From a phage: 64,000 bases of DNA. Made by a program: the position numbers and the translations under genes. Below are positions 2,251 through 36,134 of this stretch, one piece after another (the stretch's first letter is position 1; every line of letters begins with the position of its first letter). The DNA lies in assembly GCA_027337125.1 (NCBI GenBank), contig GCA_027337125.1_3057.1; one strand, 5' to 3'. The notes beneath the pieces are model-generated. The model was not told the origin of the DNA. It ran no database searches and saw only the letters and a list, made by a program, of their open reading frames with translations.

Positions 2251-3453
2251 ATGAAAGTATGTATTTTTATGGCTCGGGGTCTTGAAGGTTGCGGTGTAAC
2301 TAAATTTTCTCTCGAGCAACGTGATTGGTTTATTAAAAATGGTCATGAAGTAACTTTGGTTTATGCTAAAGATAAATCATTTACTCGTAACTGTGCGCAT
2401 GATTATAAATCATTTTCAATTCCGGTTTTATTGGCAAAAGAATACGATAAAACACTTAAGCTGGTAAATGATTGTGATATTCTAATTATCAATTCAGTTC
2501 CTGCTACTTCAGTCGAAGAAGACACTATTAATAACTATAAAAAAATTATTGATAACATTAAACCTTCTGTTCGTGTTGTAGTTTATCAACATGACCATTC
2601 TTCTCTTTCTTTACGCCGAAATTTGGGATTAGAAGAAACTGTTCGTCGAGCTGATGTTATTTTTAGTCATTCTGATAATGGTGACTTTAATAAAGTTTTG
2701 ATGAAAGAATGGTATCCAGAAACAGTTTCTTTGTTTGATGATATTGAAGAAGCACCGACCGTATATAACTTTCAGCCTCCTATGGATATTGCGAAGGTTC
2801 GATCAACTTACTGGAAAGATGTTTCTGAAATTAACATGAATATCAACCGTTGGATTGGTCGTACAACTACGTGGAAAGGTTTTTATCAGATGTTTGATTT
2901 TCACGAAAAACATCTTAAACCTGCAGGACTAAGTACTATTATGGAAGGTCTGGAACGTTCTCCGGCATTCATTCCTATTAAAGAAAAAGGAATTCCATAC
3001 GAGTATTATCGTCTTCATCAAGTAGACCAAATTAAAATTGCTCCTAATTTGCCAACGCAAATTCTTGACCGTTATGTAAATAGCGAAATGCTTGAACGCA
3101 TGAGTAAATCCGGATTTGGTTATCAGCTGAGTAAATTGGACAAAAAATATCTACAACGTTCTTTAGAATATACTCATCTCGAGCTTGGTGCGTGCGGAAC
3201 AATTCCGGTATTTTGGAAATCTACTGGCGAAAATTTAAAATTCCGTGTTGATAATACTCCGTTAATTTCGCATGATAGCGGTATCGTTTGGTTTGATGAA
3301 AATGACATGGAATCAACATTTGAGCGTATTAAAGAACTGTCATCTGACCGAGCTCTTTATGACCGTGAACGTGAAAAAGCTTATGAATTTTTGTATCAGC
3401 ACCAAGATTCAAGCTTCTGCTTTAAAGAACAGTTTGACATTATTACAAAATAA
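2251..3453 (+). CDS. agt: DNA alpha-glucosyltransferase (hmC glucosylation)
   Basis: 400 aa; N-terminus MKVCIFMARGLEGCGVTKFSLEQRDWFIKNGHEV matches recalled T4 alpha-gt; sits between 55 and 47 as in T4. Confidence 0.9.
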   Translation: MKVCIFMARGLEGCGVTKFSLEQRDWFIKNGHEVTLVYAKDKSFTRNCAHDYKSFSIPVLLAKEYDKTLKLVNDCDILIINSVPATSVEEDTINNYKKIIDNIKPSVRVVVYQHDHSSLSLRRNLGLEETVRRADVIFSHSDNGDFNKVLMKEWYPETVSLFDDIEEAPTVYNFQPPMDIAKVRSTYWKDVSEINMNINRWIGRTTTWKGFYQMFDFHEKHLKPAGLSTIMEGLERSPAFIPIKEKGIPYEYYRLHQVDQIKIAPNLPTQILDRYVNSEMLERMSKSGFGYQLSKLDKKYLQRSLEYTHLELGACGTIPVFWKSTGENLKFRVDNTPLISHDSGIVWFDENDMESTFERIKELSSDRALYDREREKAYEFLYQHQDSSFCFKEQFDIITK

Positions 3454-3633: not shown

Positions 3634-4649
3634 AAATACTAAACTTGGGTGATTGGCATTTAGGCGTTAAAGCTGATGATGAGTGGGTTCAATCCATTCA
3701 GTTGGATGGAATTAAGCAAGCGATAGAATATTCTAAGAAAAATGGAATTACTGTATGGATTCAATACGGCGATATTTTTGATGTGCGAAAAGCAATCACG
3801 CATAAAACTATGGAGTTCGCTCGTGAAATAGTTCAAATGCTTGATGATGCTGGTATTACCCTACATACTATTGTAGGAAACCATGATATGCACTTCAAAA
3901 ATACTTTAACTCCAAATGCCTCTACTGAGCTTTTGGCTAAATATCCTAATGTTAAAGTATATGATAAGCCTACTACCGTAGATTTTGACGGATGTTTGAT
4001 TGATTTGATTCCTTGGATGTGCGAAGAAAATACTGGTGAAATCTTAGATCACATCAAAACTTCATCTGCTTCTTTTTGTGTCGGTCACTGGGAACTGAAT
4101 GGATTTTATTTTTATAAAGGAATGAAATCTCACGGTCTTGAGCCTGATTTCCTTAAGACTTATAAAGAGGTGTGGTCTGGTCACTTCCATACTATTTCTG
4201 AGGCTGCAAACGTCAAGTATATTGGGACACCATGGACACTAACCGCAGGTGACGAGAATGACCCTCGTGGGTTCTGGATGTTTGATACAGAAACAGAGCG
4301 AATGGAATTTATTCCAAACAATACTACTTGGCATCGTCGAATTCAATATCCATTTAAGGGAAAAATTGACTATAAAGATTTTACAAATCTATCAGTACGT
4401 GTTATAGTAACTGAAGTAGACAAAAATCTGACGAAGTTCGAATCTGAACTAGAAAAAGTTGTGCATTCATTGCGAGTTGTGTCAAAGATTGATAACTCTG
4501 TCGAGTCAGATGATAGTGAAGAAGTTGAAGTTCAATCTCTTCAGACGTTGATGGAAGAATATATTAATGCAATTCCAGACATCACTGATTCTGACCGTGA
4601 AGCACTTATTCAATATGCAAATCAGTTATATGTAGAGGCAACACAATGA
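3630..4649 (+). CDS. 47: gp47, Mre11-like recombination nuclease subunit
   Basis: 339 aa; phosphoesterase motifs GDWHLG and GNHD; position and length as T4 gp47. Confidence 0.9.
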   Translation: MKILNLGDWHLGVKADDEWVQSIQLDGIKQAIEYSKKNGITVWIQYGDIFDVRKAITHKTMEFAREIVQMLDDAGITLHTIVGNHDMHFKNTLTPNASTELLAKYPNVKVYDKPTTVDFDGCLIDLIPWMCEENTGEILDHIKTSSASFCVGHWELNGFYFYKGMKSHGLEPDFLKTYKEVWSGHFHTISEAANVKYIGTPWTLTAGDENDPRGFWMFDTETERMEFIPNNTTWHRRIQYPFKGKIDYKDFTNLSVRVIVTEVDKNLTKFESELEKVVHSLRVVSKIDNSVESDDSEEVEVQSLQTLMEEYINAIPDITDSDREALIQYANQLYVEATQ

Positions 4650-13052: not shown

Positions 13053-13301
13053 TTGGAGAATGAAATGAAAATTGTTATGGGATGCTTAGCAGTTTGTTTA
13101 GTTGCATTAGCAGCAGTTCCATTTGTTAGTGTTGAAAATGATACCCAACCTGTGATTGAATCTAGCACTGTTATTCACACTAATGGTAAAATATCAGTTA
13201 AAATTGATGATAATCTTCATGTGAATACAAATGGATCTTTAGGTGTGCAAATAGGTAATACCTGCATAAGCACTATTGGAGTAATTACTACTTGCATTTG
13301 A
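13053..13301 (+). CDS. predicted secreted or membrane-anchored small protein (82 aa)
   Basis: Hydrophobic N-terminal signal-like segment CLAVCLVALAAVPFV; downstream of an early promoter. Confidence 0.5.
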   Translation: MENEMKIVMGCLAVCLVALAAVPFVSVENDTQPVIESSTVIHTNGKISVKIDDNLHVNTNGSLGVQIGNTCISTIGVITTCI

Positions 13302-14104: not shown

Positions 14105-14845
14105 ATGATTAATGATTCTTTGACAGTTGAAGAAATCCGTCTTCATTTGGGAATTGCATTAAAGGAAAAAGATTTCGTAATTGATAAAACTGGTGTTAAA
14201 ACTATTGAAATTATTGGCGCATCATTTGTAGCAGATGAACCGTTTATTTTTGGCGCTCTTAATGATGAATACATTCAGCGTGAACTTGAATGGTACAAGT
14301 CTCAAAGTCTGTTTGTTAAAGATATTCCAGGCGAAACGCCAAAGATTTGGCAACAGGTAGCATCTTCTAAAGGTGAAATTAACTCGAATTATGGTTGGGC
14401 TATCTGGTCAGAAGATAACTATGCCCAGTATGATATGTGTTTAGCTGAACTTGGTCAAAATCCTGATTCTCGCCGCGGTATCATGATTTATACTCGTCCA
14501 TCCATGCAGTTTGACTACAACAAAGATGGTATGTCAGATTTCATGTGTACGAATACAGTACAGTACCTGATTCGTGATAAGAAAGTCAATGCAGTAGTAA
14601 GCATGCGTTCAAATGACGTGGTCTTTGGATTCCGTAATGATTATGCATGGCAAAAATACGTACTAGATAAATTAGTATCTGATTTGAATGCAGGTGATTC
14701 AACTCGTCAGTATAAAGCAGGTTCCATTATATGGAATGTTGGAAGCCTTCATGTGTATTCTCGTCATTTTTATTTGGTTGACCATTGGTGGAAAACTGGC
14801 GAAACTCATATTGCGAAAAAAGATTATAACGGTGAGTGGAAATGA
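14105..14845 (+). CDS. 42: gp42, dCMP hydroxymethylase
   Basis: 246 aa; conserved position and length relative to T4 gp42. Confidence 0.85.
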   Translation: MINDSLTVEEIRLHLGIALKEKDFVIDKTGVKTIEIIGASFVADEPFIFGALNDEYIQRELEWYKSQSLFVKDIPGETPKIWQQVASSKGEINSNYGWAIWSEDNYAQYDMCLAELGQNPDSRRGIMIYTRPSMQFDYNKDGMSDFMCTNTVQYLIRDKKVNAVVSMRSNDVVFGFRNDYAWQKYVLDKLVSDLNAGDSTRQYKAGSIIWNVGSLHVYSRHFYLVDHWWKTGETHIAKKDYNGEWK

Positions 14846-15684
14846 TTCAATTCGTAATTCCAAGCTATCAACGTGTAGGGGCAGTTTCTGCCCTTGATAT
14901 GTTTCCGACTGATTATGAACCTCATATTGTAGTACGTAAACACGAAGAAAAAGCTTATTATGACGCTTATGGGTCTAGAGCTAAAATTATAACTATTCCT
15001 GATGATGTTAATGGAATTGCTGGAACTCGTAAAGCAATTACTGATATGTATGCAGGTCAACGAATCTGGATGATTGACGATGATACTACGATTCGTATGA
15101 GTTCAATACGAAAGAGAGACGATAAACGGCGCGTAGATAAAATTAATCAATTAACTCGTGAACAGTTCTATGAATTGATTCAATACGTTGAAGATGCCAT
15201 GGATTGCGGGTATTATCATGGCCATGCTCGTCTACCAATTTTTAAAATTACTTCATCTTGGGGTAATTATCGTGAAAACTCATATGGATTCACGAATACG
15301 TGGTATGACCTCGGAAAACTTACGACAGAACAAATTGGGTATGGAAAAATTGATTTATGCGAAGATATGTATGCATTTCTCAATTTAATTAATCAAGGTT
15401 ATCCGCATTTGGCCTTGTTCAAATATCTAGTTGTATCTGGAAAATCACACGCTCCCGGTGGGTGTAGTTCAATTCGTAGTAATTCTAAACATAATAGAGC
15501 GCTTGAGCAAATCAATAGAGAGTTTCCAGAGCAAGCTCGTTGGAAAACTTCTAATATTGAAAAACGAAAATCGTTGGGTGAAGAAGATGAACCATTAAAG
15601 GTTCTTCGCATGTGTGTTTCGCGTAAAGAAAAATCAGAAGCATTTCATAAGTTTAATGCTATTCATCCAATAGCAGTTGATTAA
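14836..15684 (+). CDS. GT-A-fold glycosyltransferase at the locus where T4 has beta-gt; possibly the T2/T6-type beta-glucosyl-HMC alpha-glucosyltransferase
   Basis: 282 aa; DxD motif (IWMIDDDTTI); no resemblance to recalled T4 beta-gt; start probably the ATG at about 14842 overlapping the gp42 stop. Confidence 0.55.
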   Translation: MEMIQFVIPSYQRVGAVSALDMFPTDYEPHIVVRKHEEKAYYDAYGSRAKIITIPDDVNGIAGTRKAITDMYAGQRIWMIDDDTTIRMSSIRKRDDKRRVDKINQLTREQFYELIQYVEDAMDCGYYHGHARLPIFKITSSWGNYRENSYGFTNTWYDLGKLTTEQIGYGKIDLCEDMYAFLNLINQGYPHLALFKYLVVSGKSHAPGGCSSIRSNSKHNRALEQINREFPEQARWKTSNIEKRKSLGEEDEPLKVLRMCVSRKEKSEAFHKFNAIHPIAVD

Positions 15685-15761
15685 TGCCTAAATTTATTGT
15701 GTTATAATTACTCTATCTTTAACCAGTGAGGAAAATATAATGATGCCTATGGAAAAAATGA

Positions 15762-16943
15762 ATGTCTATTGCAGATTTAAAATCCCGTTTGATTAAAGCT
15801 TCCACTTCTAAAATGACTGCTGAACTGACTACATCTAAATTCTTTAATGAAAAGGATGTAATTCGTACAAAAATCCCAATGCTTAATATTGCTATTTCTG
15901 GTGCGATTGATGGCGGTATGCAGTCTGGTTTAACTATTTTCGCAGGGCCTTCTAAACACTTTAAATCAAATATGTCTTTGACTATGGTTGCGGCATATTT
16001 GAACAAATATCCTGATGCAGTTTGTCTATTCTATGATAGCGAATTTGGTATTACTCCAGCTTATTTGCGATCCATGGGAGTTGACCCGGAACGAGTAATT
16101 CATACGCCAATCCAGTCAGTTGAACAGCTAAAAATTGATATGGTGAATCAGCTTGAAGCTATTGAGCGCGGTGAAAAGGTTATTGTATTCATCGACTCAA
16201 TCGGTAATATGGCTTCTAAGAAAGAAACGGAAGATGCCCTGAATGAAAAATCTGTGGCAGATATGACTCGTGCTAAATCACTGAAGTCATTATTCCGTAT
16301 TGTTACTCCTTACTTTAGCATTAAAAATATTCCGTGTGTTGCGGTTAACCATACAATTGAAACAATTGAAATGTTTAGTAAAACCGTGATGACAGGTGGT
16401 ACAGGCGTAATGTATTCGGCTGATACCGTATTCATTATCGGTAAACGTCAGATTAAAGATGGTTCTGATCTTCAGGGGTATCAATTTGTTCTAAATGTAG
16501 AAAAATCTCGTACTGTTAAAGAAAAAAGTAAATTCTTTATTGATGTTAAATTTGACGGTGGTATCGATCCTTATTCTGGATTGTTAGATATGGCTCTAGA
16601 ATTAGGATTTGTAGTAAAACCTAAAAATGGCTGGTATGCTCGTGAATTTCTTGACGAAGAAACCGGCGAGATGATTCGCGAAGAAAAATCTTGGCGTGCA
16701 AAAGATACCAACTGCACTACATTCTGGGGTCCTTTATTTAAGCATCAACCATTCCGAGATGCTATTAAACGTGCTTATCAGTTAGGTGCTATTGATAGTA
16801 ATGAAATTGTTGAAGCTGAAGTTGATGAATTGATTAACTCAAAGGTTGAAAAATTTAAATCTCCAGAAAGTAAAAGTAAATCAGCTGCTGATTTAGAAAC
16901 TGACCTCGAGCAGTTAAGTGATATGGAAGAATTTAATGAGTAA
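15762..16943 (+). CDS. uvsX: UvsX, RecA-like recombinase
   Basis: 393 aa; Walker A GPSKHFKS; matches recalled T4 UvsX. Confidence 0.95.
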   Translation: MSIADLKSRLIKASTSKMTAELTTSKFFNEKDVIRTKIPMLNIAISGAIDGGMQSGLTIFAGPSKHFKSNMSLTMVAAYLNKYPDAVCLFYDSEFGITPAYLRSMGVDPERVIHTPIQSVEQLKIDMVNQLEAIERGEKVIVFIDSIGNMASKKETEDALNEKSVADMTRAKSLKSLFRIVTPYFSIKNIPCVAVNHTIETIEMFSKTVMTGGTGVMYSADTVFIIGKRQIKDGSDLQGYQFVLNVEKSRTVKEKSKFFIDVKFDGGIDPYSGLLDMALELGFVVKPKNGWYAREFLDEETGEMIREEKSWRAKDTNCTTFWGPLFKHQPFRDAIKRAYQLGAIDSNEIVEAEVDELINSKVEKFKSPESKSKSAADLETDLEQLSDMEEFNE

Positions 16944-21385: not shown

Positions 21386-22725
<1,340 letters not shown>

Positions 22726-22785
22726 TTGCTTATATATTCAAATGATATAATTATTTAACTTATTAATGAATTGAAAGGAAAAATA

Positions 22786-23304
22786 ATGGCATACTTTAAT
22801 GAATGTTCACAACTGATTGAAGGCGCTGATAAAGCTCAAAATGAATACTGGGATATTCTCGGTGATGAAAAAGACCCGCTGCAGGTTATGCTTGATATGC
22901 AGAAATCTTTACAGGTTCGTTTAGCTAAAGATAAACCTGAATATAACCGTCATCCTGATGATTTGGCTACTGCAGGTGAAGTTGTTGATTGGCTACGTAA
23001 TCAGAAAGATTATATTGACGATGAATTCCGCGAACTTCTGACTTCTCTTGGCGGTATGAGCAATGGTGAAAAAGATGCATCTGCTGTATGGAAGCCTTGG
23101 AAAGCTCAACATGGTGAACGCCGTGAAACTCTAATTACTGATTTGTCTCCACAAGACCAGTTGGAAATTAAATTCGAAATGATTGATATTCTTCATTTCG
23201 TTCTGAACATGTTCCAAGGTCTCGGCCTTACAGCTGAAGAAATCTTTAAACTTTATTATCTGAAAAATGCTGAAAACTTCGCGCGTCAAGACCGAGGTTA
23301 TTAA
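22786..23304 (+). CDS. 56: gp56, dCTPase/dUTPase (dCTP pyrophosphatase)
   Basis: Track ORF starts at 22771; ATG at 22786 after GGAAA RBS gives MAYFNEC..., similar to recalled T4 gp56. Confidence 0.85.
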   Translation: MAYFNECSQLIEGADKAQNEYWDILGDEKDPLQVMLDMQKSLQVRLAKDKPEYNRHPDDLATAGEVVDWLRNQKDYIDDEFRELLTSLGGMSNGEKDASAVWKPWKAQHGERRETLITDLSPQDQLEIKFEMIDILHFVLNMFQGLGLTAEEIFKLYYLKNAENFARQDRGY

Positions 23305-34264: not shown

Positions 34265-34316
34265 AGCTTTATGATTACCGGAGTATAATATTCCCGAAAC
34301 CAAACGAGGATAAGTG

Positions 34317-36134
34317 ATGATTAAGAATGAAATTAAAATTCTGAGCGATATTGAACATATCAAAAAGCGTAGCGGCATGTACATTGGTTCTTCTGCTAAT
34401 GAAATGCATGAGCGCTTTCTGTTTGGTAAATGGGAAAGTGTTCAGTATGTACCTGGTCTTGTTAAGCTTATTGATGAAATTATCGATAACTCAGTAGATG
34501 AAGGTATTCGTACTAAGTTTAAATTCGCGAATAAAATTAATGTTACTATTAAAAACAATCAAGTAACAGTTGAAGATAACGGTCGTGGTATTCCACAAGC
34601 GATGGTTAAAACACCTACTGGTGAAGAAATTCCTGGTCCTGTTGCTGCCTGGACTATTCCAAAAGCAGGTGGTAACTTCGGTGATGATAAAGAACGCGTC
34701 ACTGGCGGTATGAACGGTGTTGGTTCTAGTTTAACTAACATTTTTTCTGTGATGTTTGTCGGTGAAACTGGCGACGGTCAAAATAATATTGTAGTTCGTT
34801 GTTCAAATGGCATGGAAAATAAATCATGGGAAACTATTCCTGGAAAATGGAAGGGAACACGTGTTACTTTCATTCCTGATTTTATGTCATTTGAAACTAA
34901 TGAGCTATCTCAAGTTTATCTTGACATTACATTAGATCGCCTCCAGACACTTGCAGTAGTTTATCCTGATATTCAATTTACCTTTAATGGTAAAAAGGTT
35001 CAGGGTAATTTTAAGAAATATGCACGCCAATATGATGAGCATGCTATCGTTCAAGAACAGGAAAATTGCTCTATTGCGGTTGGTCGTTCACCGGATGGTT
35101 TTCGTCAATTAACATACGTCAATAACATTCATACTAAGAATGGTGGTCATCACATTGACTGTGTTATGGATGATATTTGTGAAGACCTTATTCCACAAAT
35201 CAAACGTAAGTTCAAAATTGATGTAACTAAAGCACGTGTTAAAGAATGTTTGACTATCGTTATGTTTGTCCGTGATATGAAAAACATGCGATTTGATTCT
35301 CAAACTAAAGAGCGTTTGACTTCTCCATTTGGTGAAATTCGTAGTCATATTCAGCTTGATGCTAAAAAGATTTCACGTGCTATTTTAAATAATGAAGCAA
35401 TTTTAATGCCAATTATTGAAGCTGCTTTGGCTCGTAAATTGGCGGCAGAAAAAGCAGCAGAAACTAAAGCAGCTAAAAAGGCTTCTAAAGCTAAGGTTCA
35501 TAAACATATTAAAGCGAATCTTTGTGGTAAAGATGCTGACACTACTCTTTTCTTGACTGAGGGTGATTCGGCTATTGGGTATCTTATTGATGTTCGTGAT
35601 AAAGAACTTCATGGTGGTTATCCATTACGTGGTAAAGTTCTCAACAGCTGGGGTATGTCATATGCTGATATGCTTAAAAATAAAGAACTGTTTGATATTT
35701 GCGCAATCACTGGATTAGTTCTTGGTGAAAAAGCCGAAAACTTGAATTATCATAATATTGCTATTATGACTGACGCTGACCACGATGGTCTAGGAAGCAT
35801 TTATCCTTCTCTGCTCGGATTTTTTAGTAATTGGCCAGAACTGTTTGAACAAGGAAGAATTCGCTTTGTCAAAACTCCTGTAATCATCGCTCAGGTCGGT
35901 AAAAAACAAGAATGGTTTTATACAGTCGCTGAATATGAGAGTGCCAAAGATGCTCTACCTAAACATAGCATCCGTTATATTAAAGGACTTGGCTCTTTGG
36001 AAAAATCTGAATATCGTGAGATGATTCAAAACCCAGTATATGATGTTGTTAAACTTCCTGAGAATTGGAAAGAGCTTTTTGAAATGCTCATGGGAGATAA
36101 TGCTGACCTTCGTAAAGAATGGATGAGCCAGTAG
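34317..36134 (+). CDS. 39: gp39, topoisomerase II large subunit (GyrB-like ATPase plus TOPRIM), unsplit form
   Basis: 605 aa from the ATG at 34317; GHKL and TOPRIM motifs; continuous through the region where T4 is split into 39 and 60. Confidence 0.9.
   Translation: MIKNEIKILSDIEHIKKRSGMYIGSSANEMHERFLFGKWESVQYVPGLVKLIDEIIDNSVDEGIRTKFKFANKINVTIKNNQVTVEDNGRGIPQAMVKTPTGEEIPGPVAAWTIPKAGGNFGDDKERVTGGMNGVGSSLTNIFSVMFVGETGDGQNNIVVRCSNGMENKSWETIPGKWKGTRVTFIPDFMSFETNELSQVYLDITLDRLQTLAVVYPDIQFTFNGKKVQGNFKKYARQYDEHAIVQEQENCSIAVGRSPDGFRQLTYVNNIHTKNGGHHIDCVMDDICEDLIPQIKRKFKIDVTKARVKECLTIVMFVRDMKNMRFDSQTKERLTSPFGEIRSHIQLDAKKISRAILNNEAILMPIIEAALARKLAAEKAAETKAAKKASKAKVHKHIKANLCGKDADTTLFLTEGDSAIGYLIDVRDKELHGGYPLRGKVLNSWGMSYADMLKNKELFDICAITGLVLGEKAENLNYHNIAIMTDADHDGLGSIYPSLLGFFSNWPELFEQGRIRFVKTPVIIAQVGKKQEWFYTVAEYESAKDALPKHSIRYIKGLGSLEKSEYREMIQNPVYDVVKLPENWKELFEMLMGDNADLRKEWMSQ

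Follow-up and report, generated by a model that had tools for sequence, protein, structure and literature searches.

Among the closest described relatives of the gene presented here are those of the phages T2 and T6, whose TAGT protein (TET-associated glycosyltransferase, also referred to as ba-gt, g-gt or ggt) adds glucose to alpha-glucosylated cytosine and was modelled, in the case of T6, as a GT-A fold that is sister to GT2 (PMC13216743, NAR 2026). A T6 phage deleted of ba-gt was described as containing alpha-glucosyl-hmC only (on presumably ~75% of the cytosines), its DNA becoming a substrate of Brig1 in vitro and the phage being more sensitive to Brig1 in vivo (PMC11078745, Nature 2024). 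The same deletion was used in the study of the BapA deglucosylase, which cannot act on gentiobiosyl-hmC (PMC13160076). The nucleosides of the phages Geo, EL and BGP, as analyzed by HPLC-MS, comprised hmC, alpha-glucosyl-hmC and alpha-gentiobiosyl-hmC in a ratio of about 1:2:2; in seven other Tequatrovirus isolates, hmC made up about one third and gentiobiosyl-hmC about two thirds, and beta-glucosyl-hmC occurred in none of the Tequatrovirus isolates measured (PMC13390438, AEM 2026). As the origin of the second glucose the authors named TAGT, whose gene is syntenic with the beta-gt gene of T4, and close relatives possess no beta-gt (PMC13390438). The T4 pair, alpha-gt and beta-gt, occurs in 6 of 753 phage genomes, the usual combination being TAGT with alpha-gt (or beta-gt) (PMC13216743); T4 is the exception, and the arrangement described below is the rule.

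The locus between gene 42 and uvsX

The window, i.e., the whole 64-kb stretch of phage DNA that was analyzed (out of a ~167 kb genome), contains ba-gt together with gp42 and alpha-gt, and no T4-type beta-gt. A preliminary description of this DNA had placed a 282-amino-acid glycosyltransferase between gene 42 and uvsX. This position is correct (Table 1), and the uninterrupted ORF of the + strand at 14836-15684, which ends with TAA, does comprise 282 codons from its GTG; the probability of a stop-free run of this length, as calculated from the base composition, is ~2e-10. The likely start is, however, the ATG at 14842, which yields a product of 280 amino acids. This ATG was preferred to the GTG at 14836 because it runs into the TGA stop of gene 42 (14843-14845), giving ATGA, is preceded 5 nt upstream by the Shine-Dalgarno-like GGTGAG, and corresponds to the start of an 843-nt CDS in all the annotated relatives inspected. 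The same GGTGAG/ATGA junction occurs in T2, PST, Geo, EL, BGP, CP and Some.

Table 1. Coordinates, in the window, of the features discussed in the text.
Feature	Position	Strand	Evidence
alpha-glucosyltransferase (a-gt)	2251-3453	+	Pfam PF11440 AGT, E = 2.4e-236
gene 42, dCMP hydroxymethylase	14105-14845	+	Pfam Thymidylat_synt, E = 1.1e-15; 95% nt identity to T4 gene 42 region
Segment without nucleotide homology to T4	14828-15773	.	blastn, window versus T4
Translational coupling junction (putative): GGTGAG then ATGA	14831-14845	+	read from the sequence
ba-gt / TAGT CDS, beta-glucosyl-HMC-alpha-glucosyltransferase (very probable)	14842-15684	+	ORF, PF20691, PHROG 842, 96-99.3% identity to T2/T6/PST/Geo
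D79-D80-D81, DxD-type metal/nucleotide-sugar motif (predicted)	15076-15084	+	invariant in alignment; directly after predicted strand 74-77
UvsX	15762-16943	+	
gene 56, dCTPase/dUTPase	22771-23304 (mechanical ORF)	+	Pfam dUTPase_2; collinear with Geo 'dCTP pyrophosphatase'

No strong + strand promoter was detected upstream of ba-gt, the sigma-70-like hits of the scan numbering 15 versus 9.4 +/- 2.7 expected, and the terminator scan returned 2 hairpins versus 1.2 expected, i.e., the level of chance, the match at 14876-14896 being inside the coding region. From the sequence, translational coupling to gene 42 would be a simpler reading than a promoter and a terminator proper to ba-gt. The 14876-14896 match is a 9-bp G+C-rich hairpin of the + strand, TAGGGGCAG TTT CTGCCCTTG, spanning codons 12-19 of ba-gt, and it also occurs in T6. 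As for the 77-nt spacer between ba-gt and uvsX (15685-15761), it carries at 15700-15708 an exact extended -10 element, TGTTATAAT, which is missing from the list of the sigma-70 scan because it has no -35 hexamer. Near -30, TGCCTAA (15685-15691) resembles a T4 MotA box, and the two elements may constitute a middle promoter of uvsX. Scans for Rfam families and tRNAs across all 64 kb returned nothing.

The comparison with T4 delimits the exchanged segment. The nucleotide homology stops at 14827, 15 nt before the start of ba-gt, and restarts at 15774, 12 nt into uvsX; the intervening 1.9 kb of T4 are annotated as beta-gt and the homing endonuclease segA. We found no counterpart of segA in the window, and a tblastn search of the whole 64 kb with T4 beta-gt gave nothing better than E = 0.14. 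As the preliminary description had recognized, the protein does not resemble T4 beta-gt, which it replaces at the same locus: the best BLASTP value is E = 3.9, and PF09198 (the GT-B family of T4 beta-gt) is not matched at E <= 1. Judging from the alignments, this is a clean cassette difference within a conserved frame. Both T4 beta-gt and ba-gt (the latter as predicted) are UDP-glucose-dependent inverting transferases that operate on phage DNA after its replication, from the same genomic slot, but they differ in fold (GT-B versus the predicted GT-A) and in acceptor (bare hmC versus, for ba-gt, alpha-glucosyl-hmC). No signal of horizontal acquisition was seen in the base composition, the GC content being 0.35-0.37 across 14800-15700, as in the neighbouring genes.

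The order 42 / ba-gt / uvsX is common to T2, T6, PST, Geo, EL, BGP, CP, Some and Bas44. The counterparts of gene 42 are annotated as dCMP hydroxymethylase in the relatives, and the annotated start of gene 56 in Geo corresponds to ~22786 of the window. The alpha-gt is indeed T4-like, with 91% amino-acid identity to the T4 protein and 99% to that of T2.

Orthology, fold and motif of the encoded protein

We propose that the gene very probably encodes the T2/T6-type beta-glucosyl-HMC-alpha-glucosyltransferase that makes gentiobiosyl-hmC, the whole pathway being included in this assessment. The identification relies on orthology, synteny, fold, motif conservation and the upstream pathway genes; the chemistry is that published for proteins with 96-99% identity to this one. 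First, the protein matches the Pfam family PF20691 TAGT over profile positions 2-205 of 205 (39.4 bits versus a gathering score of 27.5) and PHROG 842 'beta-glucosyl-HMC-alpha-glucosyltransferase' over residues 1-275 (E = 1.5e-87). Second, the homology search against the T2 and T6 enzymes, which the preliminary description had proposed as a check, retrieved full-length orthologues: over 280 amino acids and with no indels, the identity is 96.8% to T2, 96.1% to T6, 97.2% to CP and 96.8% to Some, in support of the idea, put forward at the same time, that a second sugar would be added to glucosyl-hmC as in T2/T6. Third, merely 2 of the 280 residues differ (99.3% identity) from the proteins of the Yersinia phage PST and of the Durham Collection phages Geo, EL and BGP. 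Full-length identity, position and a start overlapping the stop of gene 42 together place the gene in the T2/T6 ba-gt orthologue group.

Such genes are widespread. A tblastn search of 50,697 phage records found the protein in 689 of them, with at least 90% identity in 475, many of which are annotated as beta-glucosyl-HMC-alpha-glucosyltransferase, and the 2.2-kb region has nucleotide matches in 608 records. No NCBIfam family was matched by ba-gt or alpha-gt, and the GT2 models of Pfam and NCBIfam did not match ba-gt. The gene is an intact, ordinary and already known one in its usual place, and it teaches nothing new on mechanism. It shares with those of T6 and T2 the length of 280 amino acids, the slot between gene 42 and uvsX, the alpha-gt partner and the DDD motif, and differs from them by nine to eleven substitutions, six of which are a haplotype shared with Geo and PST. 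Lys33 is private to the window protein, the eight other sequences compared all having Glu.

The assignment to the GT-A type, made earlier from the DxD motif IWMIDDDTTI, is borne out by the predicted structure. The motif was found where expected, at residues 75-84 (nt 15064-15093). A DxD motif was not accepted as evidence on its own, since 1.3 are expected by chance and 1 was observed; it carries weight because it is invariant across homologues down to 27% identity. A word-indexed protein search found 11 relatives, the most distant one being 27% identical, and the shallow alignment used here (A2) comprises 10 sequences, in which D79, D80, D81, R11, D93, D121, D175 and the P205-G206-G207 region are invariant and E174 nearly so. 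All 40 invariant residues of this alignment, R11 included, are intact in the window protein. The AlphaFold2 model is only of moderate quality (mean pLDDT 69, pTM 0.71) because of the shallow alignment that the 11 relatives found by this search afford; its pLDDT is 82-93 over the first 80 residues, and falls below 50 in the loops 126-151 and 194-210. In the model, the protein is predicted to form one Rossmann-like nucleotide-sugar domain that resembles solved GT-A enzymes in structure, and the conserved acidic motif directly follows a core beta strand (74-77).

By analogy, the residues DDD 79-81 presumably bind the divalent metal and the diphosphate of UDP, and E174-D175 is a candidate catalytic base, as judged from GT2 enzymes. 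An inverting GT2-like enzyme is consistent with a beta linkage made from UDP-alpha-glucose. As compared with the cellular GT-A enzymes of the GT2 family (TarP, 6h1j; TarS, 5tze; RmlT, 8bz4; and the catalytic domain of cellulose synthase), the sequence identity is 7-17%, and the acceptor of ba-gt differs in being a sugar on double-stranded DNA. A sequence search of the PDB with ba-gt gave chance hits alone (E > 1), no structure of the family being detectable.

Predicted modification of the phage DNA

We propose the following pathway. Gp42 would make hm-dCMP, the base of which would later be glucosylated, and gp56 would remove dCTP, so that hmC would replace C in replication. Then alpha-gt (GT-B) would add an alpha-linked glucose to some of the hmC residues of freshly replicated DNA. 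Finally, ba-gt (GT-A), translated by coupling to gene 42, would move a glucose from UDP-glucose to the 6-OH of the first glucose, with inversion, thereby forming the beta-1,6 linkage of gentiobiosyl-hmC. This activity on alpha-glucosyl-hmC is putative in the present phage, by analogy with the T6 deletion and the LC-MS data on Geo, EL and BGP. We infer that the DNA of this phage is a mixture of hmC, alpha-glucosyl-hmC and gentiobiosyl-hmC, devoid of beta-glucosyl-hmC.

The proportions of this mixture might be those of a true ba-gt of low activity, with the modified cytosines mostly carrying a single glucose and the second sugar minor, as in T2 (5% gentiobiosyl). We consider this rather unlikely, though possible as a matter of degree. 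It draws on the occurrence of two ba-gt haplotypes, namely I89 K95 R97 I101 S202 H203 in the window, Geo, EL, BGP and PST, and M89 R95 C97 V101 A202 Q203 in T6, T2, Some, CP and Bas44. The three measured phages with the haplotype of the window convert about half of their alpha-glucosyl-hmC (~50%), whereas T6, Some and CP, which have the other one, convert nearly all of it (PMC13390438). Intact T6-type ba-gt goes with the conversion of almost all (at least 95%) alpha-glucosyl-hmC to gentiobiosyl-hmC whichever alpha-gt is present, and T2, with its R11H substitution, with ~7%. The private E33K substitution of the window protein may point in the same direction. However, the window protein has kept all the invariant residues, including the R11 that T2 has lost; Geo, EL and BGP are closely related and count as a single lineage; and the ratio could reflect instead expression, timing or the alpha-gt allele, which in the window differs from that of Geo.

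The alpha-gt proteins also fall into two types, ~91% identical, whose differences concentrate at residues 47-118 and 221-298: a T4-type in T4, T6, Geo, EL and BGP, and a T2-type in T2, Some, CP and the window (99.0-99.5% identity of the window protein to T2, Some and CP, 91% to T4, T6 and Geo). The window ba-gt groups with Geo but its alpha-gt groups with T2, Some and CP, which indicates that the transferase genes have been reassorted by recombination. We found no measured phage with this pairing of a Geo-type ba-gt (plus the private E33K) and a T2-type alpha-gt, so the modification ratio of the window phage could differ from that of every measured phage. That the natural ba-gt haplotypes themselves set the extent of di-glucosylation is a tentative and somewhat doubtful idea, which reflects a correlation only, drawn from what amounts to a single Geo lineage and, among the seven group-iv Durham phages, from Some and CP. 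Were the haplotype causal, it would explain the 60-year-old difference in gentiobiosylation between T2 and T6, and provide a genotype-to-modification predictor for T-even phages.

Gentiobiosylation is ~5% in T2 versus 72% in T6. Codon 11 of T2 ba-gt specifies His, whereas Arg11 is invariant in all the aligned homologues down to 27% identity (Arg codon of the window, 14872-14874). The stretch with R11H is identical in all eight T2 records of the collection and in SV76, and is present in no other phage record. From these sequences, R11H is a candidate explanation of the low gentiobiosylation of T2 as compared with T6.

In both of the public T6 genome records ba-gt is damaged, and the window gene has neither lesion. 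In MH550421, codon 10 is TAG (C28T; 3951-3953 on the - strand of sequence L004) and the gene is annotated from M20 (261 amino acids). In AP018814/NC_054907, an in-frame 3-nt deletion turns the invariant DDD into DD (279 amino acids; 951-1790 of sequence L016), and the T6 TAGT protein of PMC13216743 was apparently taken from the RefSeq record NC_054907. These lesions could have arisen by mutation in the stocks or by misreading of the GATGATGAT run in sequencing; if they are real, little gentiobiosyl-hmC is to be expected from those stocks.

That ba-gt would act directly on bare hmC, as a GT-A replacement of T4 beta-gt yielding beta-glucosyl-hmC and no disaccharide, is highly improbable. The gene does occupy exactly the slot of T4 beta-gt, some database records call it 'beta-glucosyltransferase' (e.g., SH7 and Sf21), and solitary TAGT homologues occur in phages with neither alpha-gt nor beta-gt (PMC13216743), which implies that some members of the family must use another acceptor. 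Yet this reading conflicts with published LC-MS and deletion data on near-identical proteins, since beta-glucosyl-hmC was undetected in the phages with the 99.3% identical protein (PMC13390438) and T6 lacking ba-gt was reported to keep alpha-glucosyl-hmC only (PMC11078745); furthermore, 20-33% of bare hmC remains in T2, T6 and the Durham phages in spite of their ba-gt. A disaccharide other than gentiobiose, resulting from another sugar donor or linkage, has an almost negligible probability: related T-even-like phages do use arabinose instead of glucose (PMC13390438), and a sequence does not by itself reveal which donor is used, but the proteins of Geo, EL and BGP, which differ by two residues, come from phages whose DNA contains gentiobiosyl-hmC (PMC13390438), which again sets this reading against the published data, no RB69-type cluster for sugar-nucleotide biosynthesis was present among the genes examined around ba-gt and alpha-gt, and the window is collinear with Geo.

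Gentiobiosylation, the predicted outcome of the T2/T6-type reading that we favour, matters to the host in that the second glucose alters the set of defences to which the phage DNA is exposed. DNA with gentiobiosyl-hmC withstands the BapA deglucosylase and, in vitro, the Brig1 glycosylase, and is still cut by GmrSD-type enzymes (PMC11078745, PMC13160076, PMC13216743). Knowing that a phage has alpha-gt and ba-gt rather than alpha-gt and beta-gt helps in predicting its host range and the ease of its engineering. For T2, T6 and many field isolates this relevance to defence is known already, and the window adds one more intact copy.

Other features of the window

On sequence grounds, the window belongs to a typical T2/T6-type Tequatrovirus. 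Its collinearity with Geo, at 93-97% nucleotide identity, extends over the 27 kb compared, dam and the adjoining DpnII-like ORF included, and the gp38 adhesin is of the T2/T6 type. The large subunit of topoisomerase II (34314-36134, +) is a single ORF of 606 amino acids with GyrB-type ATPase and TOPRIM_C domains, whereas T4 encodes this subunit in two pieces, genes 39 and 60; the unsplit gp39 is in keeping with a T2/T6-like genome.

An ORF of 186 amino acids (21386-21946, +) ends exactly at the start of the Dam methyltransferase gene (21946-22725, +; Pfam D12 MTase, E = 1e-50). Its match to the DpnII restriction endonuclease family is weak and below threshold (E = 0.0025, 17.6 bits versus a cut-off of 23), and the pair also occurs in Geo, EL and BGP. 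Such a pairing, of a GATC nuclease-like gene with a GATC methylase, is curious in a phage whose DNA contains hmC. Between gene 43 and imm.1, the segment 13079-13311 (+) has no nucleotide homology to T4 and overlaps an ORF of 82 amino acids (13053-13301) whose N-terminus is hydrophobic and which matches no Pfam family; at this place, the annotations of T2, Geo, EL and BGP list one or two small hypothetical genes.
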